Counted from the first letter of the stretch, positions 4,571 to 45,337 are shown. The stretch is 64,000 nucleotides of DNA from an uncultured Chloroflexia bacterium (GCA_963782935.1 CAWALN010000022.1:75531-139530), one strand, 5' to 3'. Notes: generated from the sequence alone by a model not told the origin. Program-made: numbers and translations.

Positions 4571-4605
4571 AGTCACTCCAAAAAGTAAATAATGAATACT
4601 TAGAA

Positions 4606-4700
4606 CCTTTTCGAAAATTTTGGAGAAGCTCGTTTTTTGAGTGTGTGCGGCAAAGCCGTATACACTCAAAAAAACGGCATCCTTTTATTCTCAGGATACA
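4606..4700 (-). repeat. conserved ~95-nt element with a 21-bp-stem hairpin, copy 1 (upstream of GH38)
   Basis: CGTTTTTTGAGTGTGTGCGGC-aaa-GCCGTATACACTCAAAAAAACG at 4631-4676. The flanks align with the copy at 10415-10515. Confidence 0.6.
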
Positions 4701-17377: not shown

Positions 17378-17454
17378 TGGTGGGCGCGGAGGGGCTCGAA
17401 CCCCCGACCTCATCAATGTGAGTGATGCGCTCTAACCGGCTGAGCTACGCGCCC
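17378..17454 (-). tRNA. tRNA-Val (anticodon CAC), CCA encoded
   Basis: Hand-folded cloverleaf: GGGCGCG/CGCGCCC acceptor, GCTC/GAGC D-stem, CATCA-CTCACAT-TGATG anticodon arm, GGGGG-TTCGAGC-CCCTC T-arm, then ACCA. Confidence 0.92.
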
Positions 17455-17584: not shown

Positions 17585-18552
<968 letters not shown>

Positions 18553-18571
18553 ACTAGAGGATGGAGAAATT

Positions 18572-19512
18572 ATGACTTCAAAGATTTCGATCGTTGGTGC
18601 AGGGATGACCGGTTCGACCACAGCCCATTGGCTGGCGGAACGTGAGATCGCCGACCTGGTGCTGGTGGATATCGTCGAAGGGATGCCCCAGGGCAAAGCC
18701 TTGGACCTTCAAGAGGCCTTGCCGGTGGTGGGAAAGGATGTCTCCGTAGTTGGCAGTAACGATTATGCCGCCACCAAGGGATCTGACATCGTCATCATCA
18801 CTGCCGGAGTGGCCCGCAAGCCCGGGATGAGCCGGGAGGATCTGCTGACCATCAATGCCAAAATTGTCAGCGATGCCACCAACAATTCCTTGAAATATTC
18901 GCCCGATGCCCTTTTCATCGTGTTGACAAATCCCTTGGACACCATGGCTTACCTGGCCATGCGCACCGGCAAACTGCCCCGCGAGCGAATCGTCGGGCAG
19001 GCCGGCATACTCAATTCCGCCCGCATGCGCGCCTTCGTCGCCATGGAAAGTGGAGTCAGTGTCGAGAATATCAATTGCTACGTCCTGGGCGGTCACGGGG
19101 ACGAGATGGTGCCGTTGACCCGTCATTCGAATGTGGCCGGTATTCCGTTGCGGGATTTCCTTCCGGCTGACAAGCTGGAAGCGATCGTCACCCGCACCCG
19201 CAAGGGCGGCGCCGAGATCATTAATTTCCTGAAGACGGGTTCCGCCTATTATGCGCCGGCTGTTGCCGTCACCCAGATGGCCGAAGCTATTTTGAAGGAC
19301 AAGCACCTGATCATCCCGGCTTCAGCGTACATGGATGGGGAATATCGGCTTGAAGGATATGTTCTTCGGCGCGCCGGTCCAGCTGGGCCGGAACGGCCTG
19401 GAAAAGATCTATGAATATGAATTGGATGCGGCTGAAAAGAGCGCCCTGGAAAAATCAGCTGCTGCCGTGAGAGACAGCATCGGCGTGATGAAGAACTTAT
19501 TGAAGATTTGAT
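18572..19512 (+). CDS. mdh: malate dehydrogenase, LDH-like (frame break near 19355)
   Basis: KISIVGAGMTGSTTA, ITAGVARKPGMSR, LGGHGD. The C-terminus ..FFGAPVQLGRNGLEKIYE.. is in a shifted frame. Confidence 0.85.
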
Positions 19513-19565
19513 ACATTCAAAGCGCAGTCGACCGCGCATCATAAATACTTGTGTGGAGGCTTCCT

Positions 19566-20885
19566 ATGATTTTGAAGGAAAAGATTGCTGCACAGTTACC
19601 CGCCTGGCGTGAACGTGTAAAAACTCTCGTCAAGGAGCACGGGGATCAGGTCATCGATCAGGTGACCATCGGCCAGGTGTACGGGGGCATGCGGGATATC
19701 AAGAGCATGGTGACCGATATCTCGTTCGTCAACCCGGCCAGCGGGATCAGCTTTCGGGGTATGTCCATCCCTGAAGTTTTGGCCAAGCTCCCCAAACCCC
19801 GTGGCGCCAAGATACCTTACGTGGGCGGGCTTTATTACCTCCTGATGACAGGTGAAGTGCCGACCCGTAAGGAAGCCGAGGAAGTGGAACACGATTGGGC
19901 CAACCGGGCGGTGGTGCCGGATTATGTGTTCAAGATGATCCGGGCGATGCCAAAGGAAACCCATCCAATGGTGCTGTTTTCCCAGGCAGTCCTGGCCCTC
20001 GAGAACGAATCGAAATTTGCCAAGGCCTATCATTCCATCAAAAAGGATGCCTACTGGGAGTCGACCCTGGAAGACTCCATGGACCTGACCGCCAAACTGC
20101 CAGTCATCGCAGCCTTTATTTATCGCCTCAAATATTTCCACGAGACCAAAAAACCGCGTTACAACACCCGCCAGGATTATGGGATGAATTTTGCCCGTAT
20201 GATGGGCGTGAAGGACCGCAAAGGCTATGCCGAGCTGGCTCGCCTTTATTTCATTCTCCATTCCGACCATGAGTCCGGTAACGTGTCCGCCCATACCACC
20301 CATCTGGTCGGCTCTGCCCTTTCGGATGTGTATTACGCTTTCTCGGCCGGGTTGAACGGTTTGGCCGGACCCTTGCACGGGTTGGCCAACCAGGAATGCC
20401 TCGGCTGGCTGATCGAAGTCCGGGATAAATTTGGCGGCGTGCCGAGCCGGGACGAGTTACGCCAGTTTACCTGGGATACCCTCAACAGCGGCAAGGTCAT
20501 CCCCGGATACGGGCATGCGGTCTTGCGCGTAACCGATCCTCGTTATATGGCTCAGATGGAATTTGCCAAAGAGCGATTCCCGAACGATCCGTTGCTTCGC
20601 CTGGCAGCCCTGGTCTATGACGTGGTTCCGGAAGTGCTGAAGGAACAGGGTAAAGCCAAGAATCCGGCCCCCAATGTGGATGCCATCTCCGGCACGCTCC
20701 AATATTATTATGGGGTGCGCGAGTTTGATTTCTATACCGTCCTGTTCGGCGTAGGCCGGGCCCTGGGAGTGACCGCCAATATCGTTTGGGCACGGGCCCT
20801 CGGCCAGCCCATCGAGCGGCCCAAATCCCTCTCCACCGCCATGCTCGAAGAGGCGGTCAAAACCCCAGTGAGCAATCCGCAGTAA
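19566..20885 (+). CDS. gltA: citrate synthase
   Basis: GMRDIK, HSDHESGNVSAHT, GYGHAVLR signatures. Confidence 0.85.
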   Translation: MILKEKIAAQLPAWRERVKTLVKEHGDQVIDQVTIGQVYGGMRDIKSMVTDISFVNPASGISFRGMSIPEVLAKLPKPRGAKIPYVGGLYYLLMTGEVPTRKEAEEVEHDWANRAVVPDYVFKMIRAMPKETHPMVLFSQAVLALENESKFAKAYHSIKKDAYWESTLEDSMDLTAKLPVIAAFIYRLKYFHETKKPRYNTRQDYGMNFARMMGVKDRKGYAELARLYFILHSDHESGNVSAHTTHLVGSALSDVYYAFSAGLNGLAGPLHGLANQECLGWLIEVRDKFGGVPSRDELRQFTWDTLNSGKVIPGYGHAVLRVTDPRYMAQMEFAKERFPNDPLLRLAALVYDVVPEVLKEQGKAKNPAPNVDAISGTLQYYYGVREFDFYTVLFGVGRALGVTANIVWARALGQPIERPKSLSTAMLEEAVKTPVSNPQ

Positions 20886-21923: not shown

Positions 21924-23090
21924 CTATTTGGTCGGTGTGGGAGCCGCTCCGGCTCCGCTCCAGCTATAATCCCGCCAGACGCTGGCTGTTCCGGCAGGGG
22001 ACCAGATGGGGTTGCCCTGGTCGTCGGATCCGGTTTGCCGGACGGTGGTGACCCACCAGCGAATGGTGTGGGCGCCGTTGTCTTGCGGTCTGAAGGAGAC
22101 CGGAACGATATATTTCGTGTCGCTCACGTATTCAATCACCTTGCGCTGTGAGCCGGTGGTGACGTTCAGGTCGGTCACGTCCAGAACGGTAACCTGGTAG
22201 CGCTCGTTATCCCGCAGGGTTCCGATGGAGGCCCATTGGAGGACTACCAAATCATTCGATGAAGTAAATTGAGCTCCATCGGCCGGGAGAAGCAAGGTTC
22301 GGCGCCGGATATGGAGGCGGGATGGTCGGGGTGGGGGTGGGGCCGGCCGTAGGAGCCCGCTGGCACAAGGGGATTTTCACCACCGTATCCAGGATAGACA
22401 TTGTCGGTGCTCAATCCGTTCCAATCTTTGATGGCTTGCATCGAAACGTTGTAATTCTTGGCGATCGTGCTGAGCGAATTCGCCGGATTGGACAGTATAT
22501 TCCACCACCTCACAGGCGGCCCGGGTGGCTGCACCTGATGCCAGGGTTGCCGTGGCAGGTGGAGGCGGCGTGGCAGTTGGTTTTGGAACCTTGAGGGGTT
22601 GGCCGACTTGCAGGTTGGTACAACCACATTGAGATGGTTTAACGCGATAATAGCCTGGACAGTGGAATTAAGGAGCAACGCGATGGATCCGCATGTGTCA
22701 CCCGACTGAACTGTGTAATCCTGCGGAGGTTCAGGGGTGACCGTGGAAGTCTCCGTGGGAATTAAAGTTTCAGTCGGAGTCAGCGTCAGCGTAGGAGTGG
22801 TGGTGATCGTGAGGGTGATGGTCGGATCTATTAGTTTCCCGGTCAGTTTTCAGGGAGAAATATACACCGCCGGCTCCCACAACCAGGAATGCGGCCAGCA
22901 ATCCCAGGGCTACCGGCAGGCTGAAGGTGACCGAAGGCATTCGAGCCGGTTGGACCGCTTTCTCTATTTTTCTTTTTTGCTTGGGAGTTGCGCTGAATTC
23001 ACTTCCGCAGACCACGCAACGGGTGGCGCTTTCTGCCAGACGTGTGCCGCACACCGGGCACAGCTTGGTTTGAGTTGTCTCAGGGCTCAT
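21924..23090 (-). CDS. zinc-ribbon / TM / 2x LysM domain protein (several frame breaks)
   Basis: CPVCGTRL..CVVCG zinc ribbon, a TM helix, a T/P-rich linker, YTVQSGDTCGSIA and LSTIAKNYNVSMQAIKDWNGL LysM motifs, and a C-terminal domain in ORF 21924-22295. Confidence 0.6.
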
Positions 23091-23360
23091 AATTCCGGGA
23101 TTATACCATGTGAAATCTCTCCCGAACCCTGCTTCTGACCAGTGCTGATGAACACGTGTTCTGTTAAAAAAAAGTATATGTTTACATAATTCTTCGCCAG
23201 CCTCATTTACGGAGATAGCAACGTACCCCCAAAGCGGAGTGAGGGGTAACACTATGCCCCTTAAAAATTATCAACTCTCGAATATTGAATACCGACTCTT
23301 ACCCTTTGACCTTCGACTTATAACGCCTGACCCCTCAACCCGCGTTATAATGGCCCAGTC

Positions 23361-24315
23361 ATGATTGACAACCTCTCCATCTATCGCACCCTCCTTCTCA
23401 TCCGTCGATTTGAAGAACGCTTATTGGTCGAATTCAGCCAGGGAAAACTGGTTGGGACCACTCACGTCTATATCGGCGAAGAAGCTGATGCTGCCGGTAT
23501 TTTTTCCGTCACGGATCCAAATGACGTGGTTTTCAGCAACCATCGCTGCCATGGCCATTTCCTTGCCTATGGAACCTCCCAACCGGAGGGTCCTGACACT
23601 TATCGCCTGGCGGCCGAACTGATGGGAAAATCCACCGGCCTGGTGGCCGGGCGAGGCGGCAGCCAGCATATCCACTGGAAGAATTTTTACTCCAATGGCA
23701 TTCAGGGTGGCGATTGTGCCGGTCGCAACAGGTATGGCATTGGCAGAAAAAGTCAAGCAGACTGGCAACATCGCATTGGTCTTTCTGGGCGACGGGACAT
23801 TGGGGGAAGGCGCCGTTTATGAAAGCTTGAATATGGCCTCCTTATGGAAGGTGCCCATTTTGTTCGTGGTGGAAAACAATCGCTATGCCCAGACGACTCC
23901 CATTGAGATGGGTGTGGCGGGTTCGATCGCCGAAAGGTTCACTGCCTTCGGCATCCCAACCTGGGAACGGGAGACTTTCGACGTTTTGGAGATCCAATCC
24001 GCTGCCCGTTCTGCCATTCAGCACGTCCGGAAGAATATTGGACCGGCTGCCCTGATCTTGCATACCCAGCGTTTCATGGCTCATTCTAAAGGCGACGACC
24101 CGCGCTCCGCCGAGGAATTAGCCCGCATCCGCCTGGTGGATCCATTGGAAATCCAGGCCGCCCGGTTGACGGCATCTGAATGCGAACAGGCCGACCTTGA
24201 AATCGCCGGGGCCATCCAGGCGGCTTTCGAGCAGGCCGGGAGCGATCCTTTCCCGGAGTTGGACGTTCCCCTATCCGGAAGAAAAACAAGCCCGCTTTCC
24301 TCATTTCAGCCTTAA
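23361..24315 (+). CDS. TPP-dependent 2-oxoacid/acetoin dehydrogenase E1 alpha subunit (frame break near 23705)
   Basis: YIGEEA, GSQH, GIQGG.., FLGDGTLGEGAVYESLN, VVENNRYAQTT (TPP-binding GDG..NN motif). Confidence 0.8.
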
Positions 24316-24334
24316 AGTTAAACTATAACGAGCC

Positions 24335-25337
24335 ATGCCTACAGTCCTTGATCGCCTGAATGATGCTTTGCATCACGCCTTGGAAAAGGATAACCTTGTC
24401 TACGTCATCGGTGAGGATATCCTCGACCCGTATGGCGGAGCCTTTAAGGTATCCCGCGGGTTGAGCACAGAGTTTCCACAACGGGTCCTGACATCGCCAA
24501 TATCTGAGGCAGGCATTGTCGGTCTGGCCTCCGGGATGGCCCTGCGAGGGTTGCACCCGGTGGTCGAGATCATGTTCGGGGATTTCGTCGGGCTCATCGC
24601 CGATCAGGTCATCAATCAAGCCGCCAAATTCCGTTGGATGTATAACGATCAAGTCAGGGTTCCCCTGGTGATCCGTACACCCATGGGCGGACATCGTGGC
24701 TATGGCCCCACTCATTCGCAATCCCTGGAGAAGCTCTTCCTGGGAATTCCGGGCCTGAAAGTGGTTGCACCCAATACCCTGGGCGATCCGGCGGGATTAT
24801 TGGAAACTGCGGTTGCGGACGAAGATCCGGTCCTCTTTATAGAGCATAAGCTGCTCTATACCCGTCCGCTTTTGGAGACAGGTCAGGGTGACTTGCTGGA
24901 ATTCGAGGTCGAGACTTCGGCGGAGATCTATCCGGCTTACCTGCTGCGTTTCAGGAACCAGGCTCCCCAGATCACCCTGGCGACATATGGATATAATTTT
25001 GAGTTGGCTCGGGCTGCGGCGCTCCAATTGGTTTACGACTATGAACTTTTCGTAGATATCGTCCTATTCTCGCAATTAAGTCCTTTCGATATTTCTCCTT
25101 TGGTGGCGTCCCTCTCCCAGACTCGCCGCCTTCTGACGATGGAAGAAGGCGGGCTGAGCCTCGGTTGGGGCGCGGAAATTGCGGCCCGTGCCGCTGAAAT
25201 CGGAATGGATGGAGTTACGGGTCCAGCGGGTGGCTGCCCTTGATCTGCCGGTGGCCAACTCAAGGCCTCTCGAAGAAGCCATCCTGCCAACTCAAGAGAG
25301 GCTCGTGCAGGCGGCCCTTGACCTGCTGGGCTATTGA
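24335..25337 (+). CDS. E1 beta subunit, transketolase-like (frame break near 25225)
   Basis: GEDILDPYGGAFKVS, SPISEAGIVG, IRTPMGGHRGYGPTHSQS. Confidence 0.8.
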
Positions 25338-25340
25338 GCC

Positions 25341-26476
25341 ATGGTGACTATGATCCTTTCAGAAATCCTCGTACCTCTTCTCAATGCCAACGAGCCCGAA
25401 GCCCGGCTGGTTTCCATTCACGTGAAGGATGGCCAGCTCGTCAGCAGAGGCATGCTCCTGTTTACAATTGAGACTACCAAGGCGGCATCTGAGATAGAGT
25501 CGCCCGGGTCGGGTCATATCCGAATGCTGGCCAGGGAAGGCGAAATATTGCGGGTGGGGGACCGGATGGCAGTGATCACCGAAAGTGTTGATGAACCCTG
25601 GAAGGCCTTTCATCCCGCAAGACCACCGGAAAGGAGAGCCCCGCTTCGGATGGACATCCGGCGGGTTTGCGGATCACCAAACCGGCGTTGGCCCTGGCAG
25701 AATCCCTTGGGGTGGACCTGAAGTCGCTTCCACTGGATAGATTGATCACCGAAGTCGGTCGTCAAGGGAATTGCCCAGACGGAAGAAGTGAGACCCTTTC
25801 ATTGCCGGCCTCCGAAAAACCATTTATCCTTATCTTTGGGGCAGGCGGGCATGCGAAATCCATAATGGAAATGATCCTGCAATTGGATGAATTCGCCATT
25901 GCAGGTATCCTTGACGATAATGAAAAACTTCGTGGAAGCCAGGTGCTTGGCATTCCCGTGCTGGGGACGCGTTCGCGCTTGTCCGAATTGGTTGATCTGG
26001 GCGTCAACCTGGCAGCCAATGGGGTTGGCGGTATCCTGGATATCAATATCCGCATCCGCATCTTCGAGCTGTTGGAAGGGGCCGGTTTTACTTTTCCTAT
26101 GTTGGTCCATCCGCGGGCAACTATCGAGCCGAGCGCACAGGTCGAGGCCGGCGTTCAGGTCTTTGCCAATGCATACGTCGGATCCGAGGCTCGCTTACAT
26201 TCAAAGTGTATGATCAACACAAATGCGGTGGTTTCTCACGATTGCGAGATTGGAGCTTACACTCACATCGCCCCCGGCGCTTTGTTGGCCGGGCATGTGC
26301 ATGTAGGCGATCGCTCTCTGATCGGCATGGGAGTGACCACTTCGATTGGAGTGAAGGTTGGTTCAGGGGTGAGGGTGGGGAATGGAGCCATTCTCCTGGC
26401 GGATGTGCCGGATAGAACCATCATTCAAGCCGGTCGATTCTGGACCGGAAAAGCCGAGGCGATCAATAGACAGTAA
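25341..26476 (+). CDS. lipoyl domain + peripheral-subunit-binding domain + PglD/NeuD-type hexapeptide acyltransferase fusion (frame break near 25590)
   Basis: IETTKAASEIESPGSGHI..VGD (lipoyl-lysine context). RITKPALALAESLGVDLKSL (PSBD-like). ILIFGAGGHAKSI Rossmann-like PglD_N region. LbH repeats with VVSHDCEIG..HIAPGA..AGHV.VG. Confidence 0.65.
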
Positions 26477-26519
26477 TTAGGCCGGGTCTGCCCGGTCTTT
26501 ATCCTTTCATCGAAACCAT

Positions 26520-27106: not shown

Positions 27107-29097
27107 GTGAACCGTGGATGGCTTCTCCCAGGCGGAAAAGTCCGCACAAGGAAAGTGATCCTGTTCGTCTCTTTATTCCTGATTGCGATCTTGATCGGAA
27201 CGGGCATCTTCGGCGGGATCAAGCTCAGGCGAATCTATCGAGCGGCCCAGATCCTTCGCCAGGATGCGCTGGATCTCCAGGATTTGGGGAAGGGATCTGG
27301 TAATCCGATTGAGCGTCTTAAAGACCGCTGGAGAGTCACTGCCAAAATTGAAACAGGATTATGAGACCCTCAAAACGGAGGTCGAGCCCTTTCTATGGAT
27401 GACGCCCTGGTTGAAATGGGTGCCCACTTATGGGAGCGATATCGCTTCAGTCCCACAGTTAATTGATCTTGCCGATCCTTTATTGGCTTCGGTGGATCTT
27501 GCCTACGGGGCAGTATCACCTTTGTTGGATGGCAGTGGACTCGCAGGGCTAACCCCCACGGATCTTTCCGCTTTTCTGGTCAAAGCCCAGCCGCAATTGG
27601 TTGGAAGCCGGATACAAGGTCAACCTGGTTGTGTCAGCCCGCAAAAATTTACCGGTAGAAACGCTCTCTCCAGAGGTTCGGGATTTGGTGGAGGCTAAGC
27701 TGGATCCTTTGATTGCCCTGATGCAGGATGGGTTGACCCTGGCAGAGGAATTCCCCCTGTTGGTAGGAGCGAGCTCGGAAGGTCCGAAAACATATCTCTT
27801 GCTGGTCGAAAATGAAGATGAACTTCGTCCCACCGGAGGTTTCATCACCGCGGCCGGAACTTTGCTCATGCAGGATGGCCGCATCACCAGTATGACGTTT
27901 GAAAATACCGGCGATCTGGATGATTGGACCAAGCCCTACCCGGCAGCCCCCTGGCAACTCCAGCAATATATGAACAGCCGTGTCCTTGTTCTGCGGGATA
28001 CGAACTGGTTTACCAACTTTCCGACTGCAGCCTTATATGCAGAAACCCTTTACTCCTATGTAAATAATCATTCCGAGGACGGTGTAATAGCCTTCGATCA
28101 GCAGGCATTGGTCGACCTGCTGGATGTGACCGGGCCCGTCCAACTTGAAGGAGTGGACTATCCCATCAATTCGAGCAATGTCATAGCATATATGCGGACC
28201 GCGAAGGTCCCCACCGCCGATGACCTGGCTTCGCCGGTTTGGAACTACAAGCTTTTCATGAAAAAGATCGCCGATGCCCTGGCAGCGAAGATTTTTAGCG
28301 GCGAGATTCCCTTGGAACGCCTTGTCACCGGTTTACTTAAAATCCTGAATGAGCATCATGTGCTGGTCCAACTGGATAATCCTTACCTGGCAGCCCTTAT
28401 GGCCAAATATCATTGGGATGGCGCTCTTCGCCATGATACGGGCGATTTTCTCATGGTGGTGGATAGCAATGTTGGTTTCAACAAGACCAATGCAGTCGTG
28501 GATACCAGCCTGGACTATGATGTCGACCTGACCTCGCCCCTGTCACCAACCAGTACACTTACGGTTTATCATAAGAATAATTCTCCGGAGTTGATTTGTA
28601 AGCAGTGGGATAAAGTCAGGCCTGTTTCAGAAGAAAAATATCCCATCACGGATTGTTATTGGAATTATCTGCGGGTTTACTTACCAGCCGGAACCAGGCT
28701 GCTGGATTCAACGACACAGGCTGTTCCCGCCTACTGGATGATCGTCAAGAAAGATATTCCGGCCCATGTGGATATATTGGACGAAGCCATCCAGAATATT
28801 TCATCTTTCGGTACACTCCAGGTGGTTCCGGGTGGCGAATCCCTCACCGCGGCTTTCCATTTTTCTCTCCCGCCTGCTACCCTGACCCAACCGGCTCCAG
28901 ACCAATTCCTTTATCATCTGAAGATCCAAAAACAACCGGGCACACAGGCCACACCTTTTGCGCTGCGGATCCACTTACCGGGGAGCGCGGTCATCCAGCG
29001 GGCAACTGCGGGGGCGGTCCACCAGGAAAACAGCCTTCTCTACCTGACCGACCTGCGCGTCGACAGAGAAATCGAGATCCTTTTCTCTTTACCCTAA
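27107..29097 (+). CDS. DUF4012 domain membrane-anchored protein (frame breaks near 27310 and 27600)
   Basis: N-terminal TM helix VILFVSLFLIAILIGTGIF. LLLVENEDELRPTGGFITAAG core typical of DUF4012. Confidence 0.7.
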
Positions 29098-29183: not shown

Positions 29184-30269
29184 ATGAAAAAATATATTCC
29201 CATTCTCGTTGTTATCGTCCTGGTTGTGACGGTCCTGGGCATTACCCGGAACAATCCGGTTTGGGCCGGGCCAAGCTCGAGCGGAGCCAACGCTCCATTG
29301 AAAGTGATCAAGACAGTCACTGAAGATGGCGCTTACAACCTCGGAGGCGTTTGCACGGTCACACTGGCTTACACGGCCGATGGATACAAGACGGTTGCCG
29401 ATGCGGAAGTTTTGGTCAAAGATTCTGAAAAGGTTCCTTTCCTCCCGGTCAAACAACCCGGTTACAGCGATGAATTCCTTCTCTATCCTGGATGCCGTTT
29501 TATTCACTCTGAATTGGATGCAAATAAGAATTATCAGGTTGTCGAACCCATGGATACTCAGGATGGGACTGCCCAAGTTTGCTTTGGCGCCAGCCCGGTT
29601 CTGACAATGAGTATCTATTATTACCTTGAGAATCCCCCCACCGGTAATAAGGTCTGGATCCAGCTTCCCACCACTTTGGAAGATCAAAACAGGCTCATCT
29701 GTGCCCCTGCCCAACATTCGGGTGTTTATATGCCCTCAGGCAAGTACATCACTGACCCATCCTTGATCCCGGGCGGGACAGGCGGTGGTGAAGAAGGCGG
29801 TGGCCAGGGCTCTGTGCAACCGCCTCCCAGGCAGGTAACCATCACCACACCGGGTACCTATGCCATCGGTGGTATCTGCACCCTGCAGACTAAATATAAT
29901 GTCCCGAATTTATCGGATACGGTGGCAGTTGAATTTGCCAACGATCATATGACCCAGGACACTCTAACGGTATCGCCGGATGTCGTCAAAGGAATTTTCT
30001 ACTTCCCGGGCTGCCACGTGATCCATTATCTAAAGGCTGTCATCCAGGATACGGTAACCCCCGACCAGGGTGATTGGAAGATCTGTTTCGCCGCCATTCC
30101 GGATAAAGTTATGACGATTTATTACTACAGGGATGATCTGACGGATGTCCTTCCCCCATGGGTCGCCCTCGAGTCGGCCACTGAAAATGGAAAAGTGTGC
30201 GCCGATCCGGTCGATTTCTCGGCTGTATATGTGCCTGCGGCCGCCGATCCACCTCCAGCGGCAAGATAA
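29184..30269 (+). CDS. secreted protein with two ~150-aa 4-Cys repeats (unknown family)
   Basis: SD AAGGAGGAG then ATG. Signal/anchor MKKYIPILVVIVLVVTVLG. Internal duplication with conserved GG[VI]CT, PGC..[FV]IH, [VI]CF, M.IYYY and C[AA].P motifs. Confidence 0.7.
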   Translation: MKKYIPILVVIVLVVTVLGITRNNPVWAGPSSSGANAPLKVIKTVTEDGAYNLGGVCTVTLAYTADGYKTVADAEVLVKDSEKVPFLPVKQPGYSDEFLLYPGCRFIHSELDANKNYQVVEPMDTQDGTAQVCFGASPVLTMSIYYYLENPPTGNKVWIQLPTTLEDQNRLICAPAQHSGVYMPSGKYITDPSLIPGGTGGGEEGGGQGSVQPPPRQVTITTPGTYAIGGICTLQTKYNVPNLSDTVAVEFANDHMTQDTLTVSPDVVKGIFYFPGCHVIHYLKAVIQDTVTPDQGDWKICFAAIPDKVMTIYYYRDDLTDVLPPWVALESATENGKVCADPVDFSAVYVPAAADPPPAAR

Positions 30270-30365: not shown

Positions 30366-31933
30366 ATGTATAATCCTGTCATGCAATCCTCCCATCGTTT
30401 TATCCGCATATTACCTCCCCTCGTCCTGGCTATTTCACTAATAGCCGTCTATTTGTTTACTATGGCACCAGGATTGACGTGGGCAAATTCTGGGGCGGAT
30501 GGGGGCGATTTGATCACTGCGGCTGCTACGGGAGGCGTGGCTCATCCTACAGGTTATCCTACTTTTTTGCTGATTGCCGCGTCTCTTTCAATTCCTGCCG
30601 ATTGGCTCGTTGGCATTCCGAACGAATTTAATGTCCGCCCTGGCGGCGACAACTGCCGCTGTTCTTGTGTATTACCTTACCAGCCGGTATATGGAGCCCT
30701 CATCTCCAACCCGCTTTTGGATACCTGGCCTCGTCACTGGCTTCGGCTTCGGAGTAGCGCCTCTCTTGTGGTCGCAAGCCGTCATCACGGAAGTGTATTC
30801 CCTGAATTGCCTGTTTGTTGCCCTCATTCTTTATCTATCCGAGAGTCCCCTTACCCTTTTCCTAAATCAAAGGCGGAAGGATATCTTACTGGGCTTGACA
30901 TTCGGTCTGGCCCTGGGGAACCATATTACGGTCGTTTTTCTTTTACCAATCCTCTTTCTTTCGAACCTCATTCGCCCTCAAGAAGCGCAAAAAGGGGAGC
31001 GCTGGATCGACCGCTTCCGGTTCGATCACCGGTCTATTCTCTTGAGACTCTTATGGACAGGAATTGGGTTGTTGATTTATTTGTCCTTGCCATTAAGAGC
31101 CATCTTCCATCCTCCGGTTAATTGGGGAAATCCTGCCACTCCGGCCGGCTTTGCATGGCTGGTGTCAGGAAAATTGTACCAGGATCAATTCCTGATTTCT
31201 TCCTTTTCCATTCTTTTCGAAAGGATTCGCGCCGTCGCGGCGATTTTTCTGGATCAATTCGGATTGGTGGGGTTGACAATAAGCCTGGTCGGGTTGATCG
31301 TTTATTTCAAACCCTCCCGCCTTTATTTATCTTTGTTGTGGATCCTGAGTGCATTTTCTATCTTCTCGATCGTGTATGCCACCAGCAACTCATTTGTATA
31401 TCTTAATACCTGCCGAACTTGCCTTAAGTATTTGGATGGGGATAGGGGTGGGGAGGTTGGTTGACTTGATTGCTCGCAGGTGGAGGTTCATCTCAGTTGG
31501 ATTTGGTACGGCTGTCTTACTGGTTCTATTCATTCAGGCTGGATTGCATTGGAGTCATGTCGATGCTTCCGGCGATTCGCGGGCGGAAACATTCGGGAAG
31601 GATGTTCTTTCGATTGCCCCCCAGGACGCGATTGTTTTTGCCAAAGGTGATCAGGCTATTTTTTCCTTATGGTATTTTCACTACGCCCTCCACAACCGGC
31701 CTGATCTTGTCGTCATTGCCTCTGACTTATTGCAATTCGATTGGTATTTACAAACGCTCCGTTCCATCTACCCCGCCATGGATTTATCCGAGCCATTCCC
31801 TTTTCCAGAGACGGTCATTGTCCTAAATCCTGACCGGTATGTCTGCTATGCGGAATATAGTCAGATCCCCGAGATTAATTGTGTGCCGCCAAGAGGGTTA
31901 GCCATGCCTCCGGGAACGGCAGGAAGGGATTGA
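30366..31933 (+). CDS. DUF2723 / protein O-mannosyltransferase-like membrane glycosyltransferase (two or more frame breaks)
   Basis: MAPGLTWANSGADGGDLITAAATGGVAHPTGYPTF N-terminal signature. Polytopic protein spread over ORFs 30366-, 30574- and 31349-31933. Confidence 0.65.
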
Positions 31934-32561
31934 TAAACCTCGTCAGTTTGGGAATGGCCGTCACAAACAGCCTTCCCCAGGAAGCTTCTCCACCTTGGGC
32001 AATGCAGGTTTGGAAAGTCAGATGTTCGTTTCCCGTATAGAACATGTTGAATATTTCTCCGGCGGAATAGACGTGGCTGGTCATGCCGTCAGAAAAATCG
32101 CTGGTTAGATCGTTCGGCTGAAGGGCTTGAAAACGAGCGATCTTTTCGACCTGGAAGATAGAAAACTGTCCGTCCCCATAAACAACCCGAATTTCCTGCC
32201 CGACTTGTAGACTGGAAAAAGAGGCGCCGGCTAGATTGTTATGGGCCAGGAGACCGATGATTTGATGGCTGGCTGCCAGGCCAAAGCGGGTCAAGACTCC
32301 ATCTGTCTCCGAGACATATCCGGGATTGTTGGCGGGTTGCGGAACCACCGGGTCGGCGAACAAGTCCGGCACATACACTCCGGTAATTACATTGGCTTGC
32401 CCGGTTCTTACAGAGGCAACAAATTTCGAAAAGGTTGGGAGTTCTAGCGAGGAAATAGCCGCGCCGGTTTCCAATGGGACAAACAATCCCATTAATATCG
32501 CCAGAAACGCACAGGCTTTAAAAATCCGGTTGGTTTTCACCAGTATTCTCCTTTGTGACAA
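31875..32561 (-). CDS. sortase-like cysteine transpeptidase
   Basis: N-terminal anchor, LLAHNN His motif, LTFQTC catalytic Cys motif, and WGRLFVTA Arg 12 residues later. This matches the TLxTC...R..V.A spacing of sortases. Confidence 0.55.
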   Translation of the reverse strand: MSQRRILVKTNRIFKACAFLAILMGLFVPLETGAAISSLELPTFSKFVASVRTGQANVITGVYVPDLFADPVVPQPANNPGYVSETDGVLTRFGLAASHQIIGLLAHNNLAGASFSSLQVGQEIRVVYGDGQFSIFQVEKIARFQALQPNDLTSDFSDGMTSHVYSAGEIFNMFYTGNEHLTFQTCIAQGGEASWGRLFVTAIPKLTRFINPFLPFPEAWLTLLAAHN

Positions 32562-32896
32562 GGGCAGGAGTTTTTGGGAAAACCAGCCTGTTTAGGCATT
32601 AAATAAAATATGGTTTTCGGAAGCCTGGCGATCTTGGCCGTGTCTGCGGCTGTAGATCCATGGCTTTGCGTCACCGGTTTTCACCGGATTTGCCCTTGTC
32701 GGTACCACTAAAGATCAAAATGCATCACCGGCTTTTTCCGGCTATGCAATTCTCGGATTTCGTAAGTTGTTAAAGTTTGAAGGCGGTATTATAGCCAATT
32801 ATGTTTTGATTATGGCTCTCTTTACATAATTGTTAACCTGTAAATTGGCCAGTTCGAGTGGCCAGATTCACTTGATTTTCTCTTCCTCTCCGTGGA

Positions 32897-39974: not shown

Positions 39975-40761
39975 TCAGCCACCGTTGATTGCGAGCCGGC
40001 GCATCCCGCGTGAAAAGGCCAGGGCCACAATGCCGCCTAATACGGCCAGCCAGATGAGTTGGCCGGAGATGATTTGAATGAAAATCGGCAGGCTGGGTTC
40101 CACAAAGAGACGCGCCGGCCCGTACATCATGTAGGCAAATGGAAGCGATTTGGCTACCGATTGCAGCCAGAGTGGATAGAAATCCAGGGGGACCAGCATG
40201 CCTCCCAGGATGAATACCAGTTTTTGGTAGATCCATTCATAAGGAGCCACTTCCTCCGAGACAAAGGCAGACAAACCAATGAGAGCATTCACGCAAAAAT
40301 GCAGCAGCCACGCACCGGCCAGATGTCAACGCTGCAACCGGCCAGTTGACAAGACTCGGAGGAGGCCCGGCCATGACCCACACCAGCGCGCCTCCGACCA
40401 GAAAAAGCAACCCCATCCGCGGCAGGCTTTCCCCCAGCCCGCTGGCGAGCTGGTAGATCAGAAAATTGTAGGGTTTGTTGATCAGATAGGCGATGGAGCC
40501 GTCTTTGACCTGGTCCGAGATGACCCGGGCGAGGCGCGGACGCCCAAGTTCCAGCGTCTCGGCCAGCAGCAGATACCAGATGGTGTCTTGCAGAGTTAAG
40601 CCGTTAATGATCTCGGTGCCGGAGTTGCTGAAGACTATCCGCCATAATTGAAAGAAGACCCACATGAAGATCAAGATCATGCCCGAGCGCGCGATCAATT
40701 CCGCCGGGTAGGCCAGGCTGTTGAGCAGGTTGATCTGAAAGACGGCGTAATATTTCTTCAT
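39975..40761 (-). CDS. ABC-2 type transporter permease (frame break near 40280)
   Basis: MKKYYAVFQINLLNSLAYPAE.. continues in ORF 39975-40292. The start overlaps the fucosidase stop (ATGA). Confidence 0.6.
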
Positions 40762-42050
40762 GCCTTCAAGGTTAATTCCACCACAGGGACGATCACGTCC
40801 GGCTGTTTGACCGGCAGCCACAAAATCAGGTCTTCCGGGCGGATCTGCAACTGGTCTGTCTCCCAGGCCGGCGCCTCAATCCGGACCTCGCTGCCGTCAT
40901 GGAGGAAGCGGGCGTACTCCACTTTTCCTGCCAGCCCTGGCAAGGAGAGCATCCGGAACGGCCAGGCATAGAAGTGGACGTATATCTTGTTTCCGTTTTG
41001 GGTCAAACGGCAGTCCTGCGGGGCCTGATAATCGCTTTGATTGCAACCGTAAATGGCATCATTGTGAGTCGCCATCCAATCCCGGTAGACCCTTAAAGAA
41101 GCCTGGGCCCTAGGATCGAAGGTGCCCAGGGAGGTCGGACCTACATTCATGAGAAGGTTGCCGCCACAGGAGACGCAATTGATAAGCATGCGGATTAATT
41201 GACCCGGGCTTTTCCAGCTCTCCTCATCCCGGTGGTATCCCCATGAACCGGAAAACGTCTGGCAGGCTTCCCAAACGACCGGCTTCCCATTCACTTTGAC
41301 CCATTCGGTCGGCTGGACTTGTTCAGGTGTATGGACATCGGCCATCTCAGCCGGCAGATCCAGGCGGTTGTTCAGGATGATCCGCGGGCTGAGTTGGCGG
41401 ATCAATGCATGCAGCTTCTCGCTTTCCCACTCCAGGCGGCCCTTGCCGGGCAAGCCTTTATATCCATGGGTCGGATAAGAGAAATCGCACCAGAGGATAT
41501 CCGGTTGGAAGCGGGTCAATAACTCCTCCACCTGATTGCGGATATATTCGGCATAGCGCGGCATATGCCTTTCACGATTAAGGTCGGCCACATTTGGATC
41601 ATCCCGCAGCGGATGGAAGACATCGATGGGAAAGTCCGGATGGTGCCAATCCAGCAGGGAATAATAAAATCCGACTTTCAACCCTTCCTCCCGGAAGGCC
41701 TCCACGAAAGGCGCCAGCAGGTCCTTGCCATAGGCCGTATTGGTGGCCTTGTAATCGGTATATTGGCTGTCCCACAGGCAGAAGCCTTCGTGATGTTTGG
41801 AGGTGATGACCGCATATTTCATCCCCGCTTCGCGGGCCTGTCTGGCCCATTCACGGGGGTCGTAGCGGGTGGGATTGAAGCGGGCCAGATAGCGGGCCTC
41901 ATACACGTCCGGTGGGATCTTTTCGGTGGATTGGACCCATTCGTGCCGGGAGGCCTGCGAATACAGGCCCCAGTGGATGAACATCCCAAAGCGGTCTTGG
42001 ACAAACCAGCTCGTGTCACCTCGTGTCTTTTCCGGCATCTCCATATCCAA
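40758..42050 (-). CDS. GH29 alpha-L-fucosidase
   Basis: RFGMFIHWGLYS, ITSKHHEGFCLWDS, DILWCDF motifs. Confidence 0.85.
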   Translation of the reverse strand: MDMEMPEKTRGDTSWFVQDRFGMFIHWGLYSQASRHEWVQSTEKIPPDVYEARYLARFNPTRYDPREWARQAREAGMKYAVITSKHHEGFCLWDSQYTDYKATNTAYGKDLLAPFVEAFREEGLKVGFYYSLLDWHHPDFPIDVFHPLRDDPNVADLNRERHMPRYAEYIRNQVEELLTRFQPDILWCDFSYPTHGYKGLPGKGRLEWESEKLHALIRQLSPRIILNNRLDLPAEMADVHTPEQVQPTEWVKVNGKPVVWEACQTFSGSWGYHRDEESWKSPGQLIRMLINCVSCGGNLLMNVGPTSLGTFDPRAQASLRVYRDWMATHNDAIYGCNQSDYQAPQDCRLTQNGNKIYVHFYAWPFRMLSLPGLAGKVEYARFLHDGSEVRIEAPAWETDQLQIRPEDLILWLPVKQPDVIVPVVELTLKA

Positions 42051-43483: not shown

Positions 43484-45337
43484 CTATATGTGGGAAAAAA
43501 ACGTTCCTTTTCGCAATAGCGCATAAGTTACTATGGGCTATTATTATTCGGAATAGAGTTCCAGAGTTGCTCCAGTTGACCGAGTTGATGATTGGCTAGT
43601 TTGGAGGAACGCGTGTGAAGTCTGAAACGGTCTTGGTGCTGACGCATACGGAGGCGTTCATCCTGAAATTTGTTTGGAACAATCTGAGACACAATTCGAA
43701 TGGTTTCATACAGCGTATCGGGGTGGGGTAACAATTCCCATGCGCCTTGACGCTGAATAATACGAAATGTGAGACCCTTTTGTCCAGTGGTGCGCAGTAA
43801 ACGACGGCCAAGGGCTCGAAAATCGCTTTCTCGATCATTATTGGTGCGGGGCAGGCCAGGTACATCGTAACAATGGAATAAACCGGGGGCAAAACTGCGG
43901 GTGGTTTTTAGAATGAGGCGAAAAGAATTGCGCAACATAGGATCCCTGAAGCGGTTGGATTGGATTTTGGTCAGGTAGACGAACAGGTCTTGGCGGACTT
44001 GATCGCCAGAGCGGTTGGGGTTTTGCTCAGGATCCAAGAGAGCGGCAATGTGTTCCAACCAATCGGCGGCCTCTCGCACAATAGAATAAGTTGCCTGGGC
44101 AGACCGAAGTGATGTTTTTAGTCCTTGATGCAATGTCAGCAATTGAGGCGTGGAATGATGAACCATTAAGCGATCCAAGAATTCCTTGACTTCGGATAGA
44201 CCCACAAACATCTCCATTCCCGCCAGGCGCAAAGGAGGCCGACCTTTGAGGGTCAACAGATACCGGATCCGACGACATATTTCTCGCATAATCGCATCGC
44301 GAACTTTATCTCCATCTTTTCCCAATACGGGTTCAGAAACCGGACTGGGTGCTTCCAATGGCGACGGCAATACCCCGGTGATGGTCAAAACACCCTTGGC
44401 TTGCTCGTCTTCCTGGCGGATAAATGGACCAATCCTGGCTCTGACATCCTGTCGCAACAGCATTTTCATGGCTTCATCCGCTTCCGCCACAGGAACTGCA
44501 ATATTGCGCAAATAGTGGCTCTGACAAAAAGCATGCCTGGCCTGGGGAAAGACTTCAGCTATGGCTGACACCAGGCCGCTTTGTTTGTCGCTCATCACAG
44601 CAGTCACCCGCAAACCCAGATCGGCAATCGGTTGCAGGAAGGTAACGAAGGCGGCTTGATCTTGCTGGCTCATCCAGCCACAGCGCAATGTCACTCCACT
44701 CATCAGTTCTCGTACCAGCCACAACTGCGGCTCGCCTCCTTCGGGTGCCAGTCCGTCCAGGCTCAAGAGCAGTCCCATTTGGTCAGCCACTATTTTCAGA
44801 TACTTCATTTGCTCCCGTTCGTGACAGGCCAACAAGGGCAAATATCGATAGTAATACAACGCTCTCACTTGCAACTCGCTGATCCTGAGCCACTGTTTTA
44901 AATCTGCATGAATGGTGCCAAAGGGTTGCTGCAGGCTTTGCCGCTGCCAGCCAATCTGTGCAATCACATCATATCCATAGGTGCAAGAAACCGGCGCTAC
45001 CTGTCTCCATTCCACCGAACCCAATATCGCAAGAGAAACTTCACAACTGGGATCCACGCAACGCTTCGTCCGCTGCGCAATCATCATGACTTCCTTCATC
45101 CCTTGCACTGTTTTGTATTTACTCGTGTAGGCAACCCGCATTGGCCCCTGGCACTTTGGGCATCGATCCAATTCACAACTATATACCGTCCCTTTTCCCG
45201 AGTAAAATATCCCTGGGGTTCTCATGGCGCTCTCCTTTCTCAGCAAGAGGTCAGTTTGCCATGAGAACCCCTTTTCTTCAATATCTATAGTAAATTATGC
45301 GCTATTGCCCTTTTTCGATTTTCACTCCCAGATATGG
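43484..45337 (-). mobile_element. complete IS element (~1.85 kb) with ~50-bp imperfect terminal inverted repeats
   Basis: Left end ctatatgtgggaaaaaaacgttccttttcGCAATAGCGCATAAgTTACTAT matches the reverse complement of the right end ATAGTAAaTTATGCGCTATTGCcctttttcgattttcactcccagatatgg. Confidence 0.75.
43531..45246 (-). CDS. DDE-type transposase with an N-terminal zinc-ribbon (family not assigned)
   Basis: 571-aa intact ORF with CPKCQG..C..PSC, MSDKQSG and AFCQSHYLRN (C-x2-H..RN as in Mutator/IS256-like enzymes). Confidence 0.7.
   Translation of the reverse strand: MLRKESAMRTPGIFYSGKGTVYSCELDRCPKCQGPMRVAYTSKYKTVQGMKEVMMIAQRTKRCVDPSCEVSLAILGSVEWRQVAPVSCTYGYDVIAQIGWQRQSLQQPFGTIHADLKQWLRISELQVRALYYYRYLPLLACHEREQMKYLKIVADQMGLLLSLDGLAPEGGEPQLWLVRELMSGVTLRCGWMSQQDQAAFVTFLQPIADLGLRVTAVMSDKQSGLVSAIAEVFPQARHAFCQSHYLRNIAVPVAEADEAMKMLLRQDVRARIGPFIRQEDEQAKGVLTITGVLPSPLEAPSPVSEPVLGKDGDKVRDAIMREICRRIRYLLTLKGRPPLRLAGMEMFVGLSEVKEFLDRLMVHHSTPQLLTLHQGLKTSLRSAQATYSIVREAADWLEHIAALLDPEQNPNRSGDQVRQDLFVYLTKIQSNRFRDPMLRNSFRLILKTTRSFAPGLFHCYDVPGLPRTNNDRESDFRALGRRLLRTTGQKGLTFRIIQRQGAWELLPHPDTLYETIRIVSQIVPNKFQDERLRMRQHQDRFRLHTRSSKLANHQLGQLEQLWNSIPNNNSP

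Follow-up and report, generated by a model that had tools for sequence, protein, structure and literature searches.

What does a 2-oxoacid dehydrogenase-like operon do when the catalytic domain of its acyltransferase subunit (E2) has given way to that of a sugar-modifying enzyme? This question is raised by three co-oriented, closely packed genes on the + strand (positions 23361-26476) of a 64,000-nucleotide stretch of DNA from an uncultured Chloroflexia bacterium (GCA_963782935.1, CAWALN010000022.1:75531-139530; hereafter the window, with all positions counted from its first letter), which encode an E1 alpha subunit, an E1 beta subunit and a fusion of a lipoyl domain, a segment resembling a peripheral-subunit-binding domain (PSBD), a PglD_N domain and a left-handed beta-helix (LbH) acyltransferase domain. 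Following up an earlier reading of this locus made from its sequence alone (the original prediction), we find it fairly probable that the cassette is a 2-oxoacid-dehydrogenase-like machine whose "E2" is a trimeric PglD/PerB-type sugar N-acyltransferase, which would acylate a nucleotide-linked amino sugar without coenzyme A (CoA).

Domain architecture of the cassette

The genes and domains of the cassette are as follows, with AlphaFold2 confidence given as pLDDT (predicted local distance difference test):

23361-24315, + strand: E1 alpha, binding thiamine diphosphate (ThDP); 317 aa once one extra base near 23712 is removed; Pfam E1_dh 2e-51
24335-25337, + strand: E1 beta; 333 aa once one extra base near 25214 is removed; Transket_pyr 1.6e-32 and Transketolase_C 1.8e-13
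25350-26476, + strand: fusion gene (lipoyl domain, linker, PSBD-like segment, PglD_N, LbH acyltransferase); alternative ATG at 25341
25350-25590, + strand: lipoyl domain; Pfam Biotin_lipoyl 2.7e-8, residues 20-79; AlphaFold2 pLDDT 90-97
25667-25765, + strand: PSBD-like segment (LRITKPALALAESLGVDLKSLPLDRLITEVGRQ); family profile against the PDB, AlphaFold2 helices
25823-26098, + strand: PglD_N-type nucleotide-sugar-binding domain; Pfam PglD_N 1.4e-11, residues 163-220; GAGGHAK and LDD motifs
26108-26428, + strand: LbH acyltransferase domain; Hexapep 2.6e-14; catalytic His codon 26237-26239 (VVSHDC), conserved Asn codon 26216-26218

E1 alpha carries the GDG...NN ThDP motif at 23788-23880 and the His codon of an MAHS motif at 24082, and its best PDB match is the human pyruvate dehydrogenase (PDH) E1 alpha (2e-43), while E1 beta has the PISEAG (Glu) and THSQS (His) motifs and matches PDB 1ik6 (1e-54). 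With its catalytic motifs intact, the pair is predicted to be of the heterotetrameric ThDP-dependent E1 type found in the PDH, branched-chain 2-oxoacid dehydrogenase (BCKDH) and acetoin systems. Neither subunit reaches the equivalog cut-offs for PDH E1 proper, with E1 alpha scoring 243.8 bits against TIGR03182 (cut-off 393.85) and E1 beta 212.9 bits against NF006667 (cut-off 321).

The repaired fusion protein is 375-378 aa long according to the ATG chosen, and P0001, an intact homologue, begins MILSEILVP like the reading from 25350. The lipoyl-lysine codon is the AAG at 25479-25481 within the motif IETTKAA, and the best NCBIfam match of the lipoyl domain is the acetoin-dehydrogenase E2 AcoC (NF011457, 5.6e-11). 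A biotinyl domain in its place was ruled out by the motif, which is ETTKA and not AMKM, by the linkage to E1, and by the genes for a lipoate-protein ligase (LplA) and for dihydrolipoamide dehydrogenase (E3) that are adjacent in Bacillota. Past the lipoyl region there is no match to 2-oxoacid_dh, the domain with the chloramphenicol acetyltransferase (CAT) fold of canonical E2 proteins, among the Pfam and NCBIfam models; instead the protein scores 177.5 bits against NCBIfam TIGR03570 (NeuD/PglB/VioB), over the curated cut-off of 160.8. The original prediction had described a 2-oxoacid-dehydrogenase-like operon of E1 alpha and E1 beta whose third gene begins with a lipoyl domain, lacks the canonical E2 catalytic domain and carries in its place a PglD/NeuD-type module with the catalytic His in VVSHDC, and each of these points is borne out by the model searches on the repaired proteins and, for the last, by the structural comparison below.

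We modelled P0001 as a monomer with AlphaFold2 from a 36-sequence alignment (mean pLDDT 91; predicted template modelling score, pTM, 0.63). The model consists of a lipoyl barrel (residues 1-80), a disordered linker (93-101), a short two-helix unit (108-141), a Rossmann-like domain and then the left-handed beta-helix. When its last ~210 residues were compared with solved structures by Foldseek, the template modelling (TM) score was 0.91 for PerB (4ea7; root-mean-square deviation 1.2 A over 208 residues), 0.90 for the PglB acetyltransferase domain (PglB-ATD, 4m99), 0.88 for VioB and 0.86 for PglD, and the window His of VVSHDC aligns with the PerB residue that is mutated in 4eaa and 4eab (H141N). 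The C-terminal half of the fusion is thus predicted to have the fold of a Class I sugar N-acetyltransferase, and the closest solved relatives (PerB, PglB-ATD, VioB and PglD) all N-acetylate nucleotide-linked 4-amino-4,6-dideoxyhexoses.

The evidence for the PSBD-like segment is modest but consistent. The original prediction had named such a segment. Pfam E3_binding gives no match on the repaired fusion at E<=0.01, but a profile built on this 38-residue stretch in 28 members of the family, run against 177,635 PDB sequences, matches solved PSBDs (2eq8_C at 6e-4, 1w4i at 7e-4, 6zzl at 1e-3, and 2eq9_C; range 6e-4 to 9e-3). Moreover, AlphaFold2 places helices at 111-119 and 135-141 (pLDDT 74-86) in the two-helix layout, with a loop about 4 residues shorter than in classical PSBDs. 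The same profile also matches PDB 7qjm_A, deposited as "alpha/beta-hydrolase (202)", at 2.7e-4, where a PSBD-like segment (residues 39-70) lies ahead of the hydrolase fold; 7qjm_A may be an AcoC-type non-canonical E2.

A large family of lipoyl-PglD_N-LbH fusions

Searching 5.8 billion proteins, we obtained more than 120 homologues of full length (357-384 aa) that are 63-81% identical to the repaired protein over 97-99% coverage and have an identical Pfam set. At present they carry no label other than "NeuD family sugar O-acyltransferase" or "hexapeptide transferase". These intact homologues keep the lipoyl part and the acyltransferase on one chain, in agreement with the earlier claim that the two form one protein. 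In a second, filter-free search of 1.84 billion cluster representatives (50% identity clusters), 605 clusters matched at E<=1e-30; of the 150 best, about 120 were fusions of full length that are only 30-47% identical. With a 10-sequence alignment as query, we also scanned one genome per species and recovered 80 loci. Carriers of the fusion include Bacillota (the cultured Anaerocolumna xylanovorans DSM 12503), Bacteroidota (Dokdonia pacifica DSM 25597), Acidobacteriota, Gemmatimonadota, Myxococcota, Desulfobacterota, Alpha- and Betaproteobacteria, Armatimonadota, Fraserbacteria and many Chloroflexota. Judged from these sequences, the lipoyl-PglD_N-LbH fusion is a large and old family that spans more than 10 phyla.

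Among 28 diverse members the Glu-x-x-Lys of the lipoyl site, an HP motif before a helix and the SHD motif vary little or not at all, and the PSBD-like consensus TKxAxxLAxxxxIDLxxLxxxxxIxExDV is kept. In a neighbour-joining tree of 79 fusions the Chloroflexota fall into two sister clades, with the window in clade A (29 loci including the window). All fusions, together with their nearest stand-alone relatives, have a 3-residue insertion (GG plus one) after the conserved A-x-G of PglD_N (window ~26020-26040, ANGVGGILD), adjoining the Gly which in VioB and PerB lies against the beta-phosphate of the sugar.

Conserved residues on the sugar side and on the CoA side

Residue roles from the VioB structure paper (PMC9271549) were mapped through a HMMER alignment onto the 79 fusions. 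We found that the equivalents of VioB N128, S134, H135 and G153, which serve the sugar side and catalysis (G153 being the oxyanion Gly), are each present in 79/79, and that the nucleotide-binding residues are nearly as constant (G11 and D32 in 78/79 each, G8 in 75/79). The lipoyl Lys, the acyl carrier that only the fusion possesses, is likewise found in all 79. On the CoA side, the equivalent of the phosphate ligand R170 is basic in none of the 79, that of the CoA ligand E171 is never acidic (0/79) and always hydrophobic, and that of a further phosphate ligand, R189, is basic in 12/79, while the pantetheine-contacting glycines (G182 and G184 equivalents) are kept in 56/79 and 68/79. Moreover, the class-wide C-terminal Gly-x-Pro turn (VioB G199-P201) is not kept: the window protein ends ...IIQAGRFWTGKAE, with no Pro, and the position reads AGRFWTGK in clade A and AGxxWP in the sister clade B and is missing in many short forms. 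Many members stop 9-12 residues after the DVPD motif, too early to include the Gly-x-Pro...Lys strand at the C-terminus with which VioB and PglD cover CoA. This pattern on the CoA side is suggestive of a donor other than CoA.

These residues also bear on a different explanation, in which the fusion would be a conventional acetyl-CoA-dependent sugar N-acetyltransferase with a lipoyl/PSBD appendage, and E1 and the arm would have another task, be it the local provision of acetyl-CoA, redox coupling or the ThDP-dependent C-C branching of a keto-sugar, a reaction carried out by AviB1/AviB2. It would fit with the solved Class I enzymes, all of which use acetyl-CoA (PMC9271549), with the pantetheine-contacting glycines that are mostly kept, and with the closest stand-alone relatives, which are alike on the CoA side. 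We nevertheless regard it as unlikely, as a carrier that is covalently fused to the acyltransferase throughout more than 10 phyla, and whose lipoyl Lys never varies, argues for direct hand-over, as many members are without the strand that covers CoA, and as no locus inspected with Pfam has a separate CoA-transferring E2.

Gene neighbourhood in relatives

We surveyed the context of 86 loci by calling and clustering open reading frames (ORFs) and naming the commonest families by Pfam. The adjacency of E1 alpha and E1 beta to the fusion, noted for the window by the original prediction, recurs widely: of the 80 loci whose flanks were long enough, 70 have an E1 that ends under 400 nt upstream of the fusion on the same strand, either as two subunits or as a fused alpha-beta protein of ~650 aa. 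The fused form lies directly upstream of the fusion in most non-Chloroflexota relatives (loci L004, L005, L007-L012, L014, L016, L017, L019-L021, L023, L060, L076 and L079).

After E1, the commonest neighbours are a DegT/DnrJ/EryC1 aminotransferase, a small Bac_transf phosphoglycosyl transferase (PGT; PglC-like), NAD-dependent epimerases/dehydratases and GT4 glycosyltransferases. The trio of PGT, acetyltransferase and aminotransferase is the signature of the bacillosamine-type module (PglC/D/E, EpsL/M/N). A DegT or PglC-like PGT gene lies within 10 kb in 17/27 non-Chloroflexota loci and 20/31 Chloroflexota loci outside clade A (37/58 together), and loci with neither keep GT4, Wzi or SGNH-type neighbours. 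In fact, in at least 7 phyla the cassette sits inside amino-sugar/glycan operons (DegT, PglC-like PGT, dehydratase/epimerase, GT4, Wzm/Wzt). A recurrent Chloroflexota operon has the order PGT, E1 alpha, E1 beta, fusion, DegT, UbiA; in Myxococcota it is E1 alpha, E1 beta, fusion, PGT, and in Armatimonadota PGT, fused E1, fusion. Lipoate ligase and E3 genes follow the fusion in five Bacillota loci. At locus L005 the order is GT4s, dehydratase, fused E1, fusion, LplA, E3, DegT and a Wzm/Wzt-type exporter, and Anaerocolumna xylanovorans DSM 12503 (L007) has the same core order, with LplA, E3, DegT and PGT nearby; the E3 of both consists of Pyr_redox_2 and Pyr_redox_dim.

It could also be supposed that the fusion is a non-homologous E2, in which the LbH trimer replaces the CAT core and passes the acyl group from dihydrolipoyl to CoA in a catabolic or central pyruvate, acetoin or 2-oxoacid dehydrogenase. 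Such a role would suit the clade-A cassette, which lies 3-5 kb from malate dehydrogenase (MDH) and citrate synthase genes with sugar genes absent nearby, as well as the closeness of the lipoyl domain to AcoC and the fact that LbH enzymes normally bind CoA. However, with CoA as the acceptor there would be no point in the family-wide PglD_N motifs and the His/Asn set for amine deprotonation, the basic residues by which VioB binds the CoA phosphates are not conserved, and 37/58 loci outside clade A lie among DegT or PGT genes. Moreover, no E3 adjoins the cassette in clade A, and the MDH and citrate synthase genes are not part of the operon, because they lie beyond a divergent LysM and methyltransferase pair. 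We consider this explanation quite unlikely.

A proposed CoA-independent route to N-acyl sugars

From the observed architecture and its conservation, the linkage to E1, the glycan-gene context in relatives, and the conserved sugar-side residues and lipoyl Lys, we propose the following sequence of events. E1 alpha/beta with ThDP would decarboxylate a small 2-oxoacid, with pyruvate as the default guess because E1 is most like PDH E1. Docked on the PSBD-like segment, E1 would reductively acylate the lipoyl-lysine of the fusion (codon 25479-25481), and the S-acyl-dihydrolipoyl arm would then swing into an LbH active site of the same trimer. There the His (codon 26237) would deprotonate the 4-amino group of a nucleotide-linked 4-amino-4,6-dideoxy-hexose held on PglD_N, giving the N-acyl sugar with no acyl-CoA involved. 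The arm would be reoxidised by E3, which is encoded beside the cassette in Bacillota and would be encoded elsewhere in other lineages, and a PglC-type PGT would take the N-acyl sugar to begin a cell-surface glycan. The original prediction had likewise suggested that an acyl group on the lipoyl arm is handed directly to a sugar or other acceptor, bypassing CoA. The E1 linkage, the glycan context and the invariant residues support such a hand-over, here to a nucleotide-linked 4-amino sugar; from architecture and context we infer that it goes directly from lipoyl to amine, bypassing CoA, whereas the nature of the acyl group and of the exact sugar stays at the level of inference, as does the bypass itself.

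Several observations weigh against this proposal. The loss of the CoA-phosphate residues occurs in the nearest stand-alone NeuD-like relatives as well, and is therefore no proof that CoA is unused; since these relatives share the loss of the VioB CoA ligands, we rejected residue identity as a discriminating test of CoA use. Five Chloroflexota loci (L055, L061, L064, L072 and L086) have the fusion without an adjacent E1. In clade A, none of the 29 loci has a DegT, PGT, epimerase or GT4 gene within 10 kb, and upstream of the cassette come the genes for a divergent LysM/zinc-ribbon protein and a methyltransferase and, farther off, those for thioredoxin reductase (TrxR), MDH and citrate synthase. 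The AlphaFold2 monomer, with its pTM of 0.63, is uninformative on the docking of the arm. Finally, the cost of E1, lipoyl and E3 for a mere acetyl group is unexplained, and the acyl group may therefore be an unusual one.

Upstream of the E1-less fusions lie TsaD, M24 peptidase, SelA, SMC or ClpB genes, and any E1 partner of these would be unlinked. For clade A, the putative link to sugars rests on homology, every catalytic and nucleotide-binding residue being kept, and on a loosely envelope-related neighbourhood, not on operon membership; its members would do the same chemistry as their relatives.

A broader picture, on which our confidence is evenly divided, is that these cassettes represent a widespread and unrecognised class of CoA-independent glycan-tailoring machines: mini 2-oxoacid dehydrogenase complexes built on an LbH trimer, which would convert a 2-oxoacid into the N-acyl group of a bacillosamine-type nucleotide sugar, perhaps adding non-acetyl groups (such as glycolyl, propionyl or formyl) that have no CoA pool, and which in the window's Anaerolineae clade would form a stand-alone leaderless operon.

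Comparison with known systems

Similar to the Class I enzymes (PglD/PerB/VioB/PglB-ATD, NeuD, TIGR03570), the fusion has the same two-domain fold (TM 0.86-0.91), scores over the NCBIfam cut-off and keeps the same catalytic His/Asn/Gly and nucleotide-binding Gly/Gly/Asp. It differs from them in ~160 extra N-terminal residues (lipoyl and PSBD-like), in an operon that gains E1 alpha/beta, in being without the VioB CoA-phosphate residues and with Gly-x-Pro altered or absent, and in its proposed donor, which would be S-acyl-dihydrolipoyl and not acetyl-CoA. Many relatives share the small PGT and DegT partners of the PglC-PglD-PglE and EpsL-EpsM-EpsN modules, whereas the window is without them.

With canonical E2 proteins the fusion has in common a lipoyl domain, a flexible linker, a PSBD-like segment and an oligomeric (trimer-based) acyltransferase, along with the gene order E1 alpha, E1 beta, "E2" and, at some loci, adjacent E3 and lipoate ligase genes. 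However, it is without the CAT fold, its acceptor site is of the nucleotide-sugar enzyme type, and its E1 scores under the PDH equivalog cut-offs. The AcoC-type acetoin dehydrogenase E2 is another case of a lipoyl (and PSBD) module on a non-CAT domain, in that its lipoyl domain is fused to an alpha/beta-hydrolase fold; it differs in this fold, probably hands acetyl on to CoA in acetoin catabolism, and is not known to be tied to glycan genes. LpxA and LpxD are LbH trimers that take an acyl group from a protein-tethered thioester arm, that of acyl-acyl carrier protein (acyl-ACP), onto a UDP-sugar, but their carrier is a separate phosphopantetheine ACP loaded by fatty-acid synthesis, whereas here it would be a fused lipoyl domain loaded by a ThDP decarboxylase. 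That ThDP/lipoyl modules can feed acceptors other than CoA, a precedent invoked by the original prediction, is established for QncN/QncL/QncM (quinocarcin) and SclQ1-4 (scleric acid), where an E1-like ThDP enzyme charges a lipoyl domain with an acyl unit that is destined for ACP and not for CoA (PMC6335953). Those glycolicacyl-ACP systems keep a canonical E2-type domain and use ACP for nonribosomal peptide synthetases, whereas the fusion uses LbH and its acceptor is probably an amino sugar.

In a full-text literature search that covered few subscription journals we found nothing linking a lipoyl domain with PglD, NeuD or bacillosamine enzymes, and the original prediction, too, knew of no characterised lipoyl-PglD fusion. 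One candidate for a prior description (PMC4875605, lipoyl and NeuD) was discarded, as "lipoylation" there means lipid attachment. Each part of the system is known, and it is the combination and the implied CoA-free acylation of a sugar that appear to be new. If the proposal is right, it joins the ThDP/lipoyl swinging-arm chemistry of central metabolism with nucleotide-sugar tailoring, which have been thought separate, and adds a lipoyl-fed LbH acyltransferase, the first of its kind. It would also open a new route to N-acyl amino sugars that could explain unusual N-acyl decorations on bacterial surface glycans, correct the blanket label "NeuD family sugar O-acyltransferase" on hundreds of protein clusters, and offer a compact CoA-free acylation module for glycoengineering. 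Two cultured carriers, Anaerocolumna xylanovorans DSM 12503 and Dokdonia pacifica DSM 25597, make the mechanism testable.

Frameshifts and their repair

In the window, all three cassette genes are interrupted by single-base frameshifts, near 23712 (E1 alpha), 25214 (E1 beta) and 25596-25598 (fusion). We placed the indels by protein alignments, DNA alignment to relatives (~70% identity) being too diverged for placement. Across the break in the fusion, the 81%-identical intact P0001 (372 aa) reads ...TAAEPLEGLSARK... (EPLEGLS), straight through the junction, and the window is therefore short of one C in the C run at 25596-25598. The repaired junction of E1 alpha (NGIQGG followed by IVPVATG) is identical in the intact loci L054 and L077, and that of E1 beta (MDG followed by LRVQRV) is matched by LDG followed by LKIRRV in L001. 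The original prediction had repaired one frameshift near 25590 and mentioned no other: the more than 120 intact full-length homologues and the P0001 junction confirm that this break is real and its repair correct, but E1 alpha and E1 beta are hit as well.

The neighbouring genes for TrxR, MDH, the methyltransferase, the LysM protein, DUF4012 and the TMEM260-like protein are frameshifted too, at a rate of ~1 per kb in nearly every gene across 17.6-32 kb. As the frameshifts are spread through most neighbouring genes, those of the cassette are most likely assembly errors. That the window copy is instead a dead remnant whose three frameshifts mark real pseudogenes might be argued from the interruption of all three genes and from 2/3 of the indels lying outside obvious long homopolymers. 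We think this very unlikely, given that housekeeping neighbours (TrxR, MDH and others) are frameshifted at the same rate, that apart from the single indels the frames are clean, without stops and 65-81% identical to intact homologues, and that the fusion indel is one base lost from a C run. The contig resembles an unpolished long-read assembly, and the database entry for the fusion consists only of a truncated 269-aa ORF (P0002).

A probable promoter and a possible operon end

Two signals flank the three genes:

23346-23351, + strand: -10 hexamer TATAAT; 9 nt separate its end from the E1 alpha ATG; Shine-Dalgarno sequence absent
26479-26498, + strand: terminator-like hairpin, T-rich tail, immediately 3' of the fusion stop; sites of this kind are no more numerous in the region than expected from shuffling

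The original prediction had seen in the TATAAT a hint of a leaderless transcript. We found (T)TATAAT at -15 from the ATG, or within 1-3 nt of that distance, in ~24 clade-A loci in which the remaining upstream DNA has diverged, and because the spacing is conserved across such loci the TATAAT probably drives transcription of an mRNA with no leader or almost none. Moreover, a conserved block, G(C/G)GTTATAATGTCCCCG(T/C)C followed by ATG, occupies window positions 23337-23363 and recurs upstream (60 nt) of E1 alpha in relatives (L001-L003, L030, L031, L035, L039, L042, L048, L052-L054, L058, L063, L073, L077, L082, L083 and others), with the -10 box at a fixed distance and a G+C-rich spacer running into the start codon. 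This looks like a leaderless promoter design shared by the clade. A consensus promoter scan found no -35 element and for that reason missed the TATAAT promoter. At the other end, the hairpin may mark the end of the three-gene operon.

Surroundings of the cassette in the window and in clade A

The nearest genes on either side of the cassette are:

21924-23252, - strand: zinc-ribbon/LysM membrane protein, divergent; three ORFs through frameshifts; Pfam LysM 1.3e-10 and Zn_Ribbon_1
27107-29097, + strand: DUF4012 protein; Pfam 4e-32; frameshifted
29184-30233, + strand: unnamed conserved protein; frameshifted
30366-31933, + strand: TMEM260-like/DUF2723 GT-C-type protein; Pfam 2.5e-18; frameshifted

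A homologue of the LysM protein is found in 21/29 clade-A loci. The downstream genes have homologues matched by tblastn in L002 and L003, and the same pair lies 3' of the fusion in L002, L003, L053 and L080; DUF4012 and the TMEM260-like (DUF2723) protein are the envelope genes that the original prediction had placed here. It had also noted that no E3 gene is nearby, and in the whole window tblastn (E<=1e-3) finds no E3, LplA, DegT, PGT or epimerase gene. A TrxR-like Pyr_redox_2 gene 5 kb upstream (17624-18549) was considered as a substitute for E3 and set aside, being without the dimerisation domain and part of a separate TrxR-MDH-citrate synthase block; it is probably unrelated. This block (17624-20855, + strand) is syntenic with the cassette in ~12 clade-A loci, which is probably plain synteny, although it gives the non-homologous-E2 explanation its chief support.

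Farther away, the window holds a GH38 alpha-mannosidase (1835-4669, - strand), a tRNA (17381-17454, - strand), an alpha-L-fucosidase (40758-42050, - strand) and a Mutator-family transposase (43531-45246, - strand), none with an apparent tie to the cassette. A class I cyclic di-guanosine monophosphate (c-di-GMP-I) riboswitch, RF01051, lies at 32616-32704 on the - strand (78.9 bits against a gathering score of 35), directly upstream of a 228-aa ORF without a Pfam match (31875-32561, - strand).

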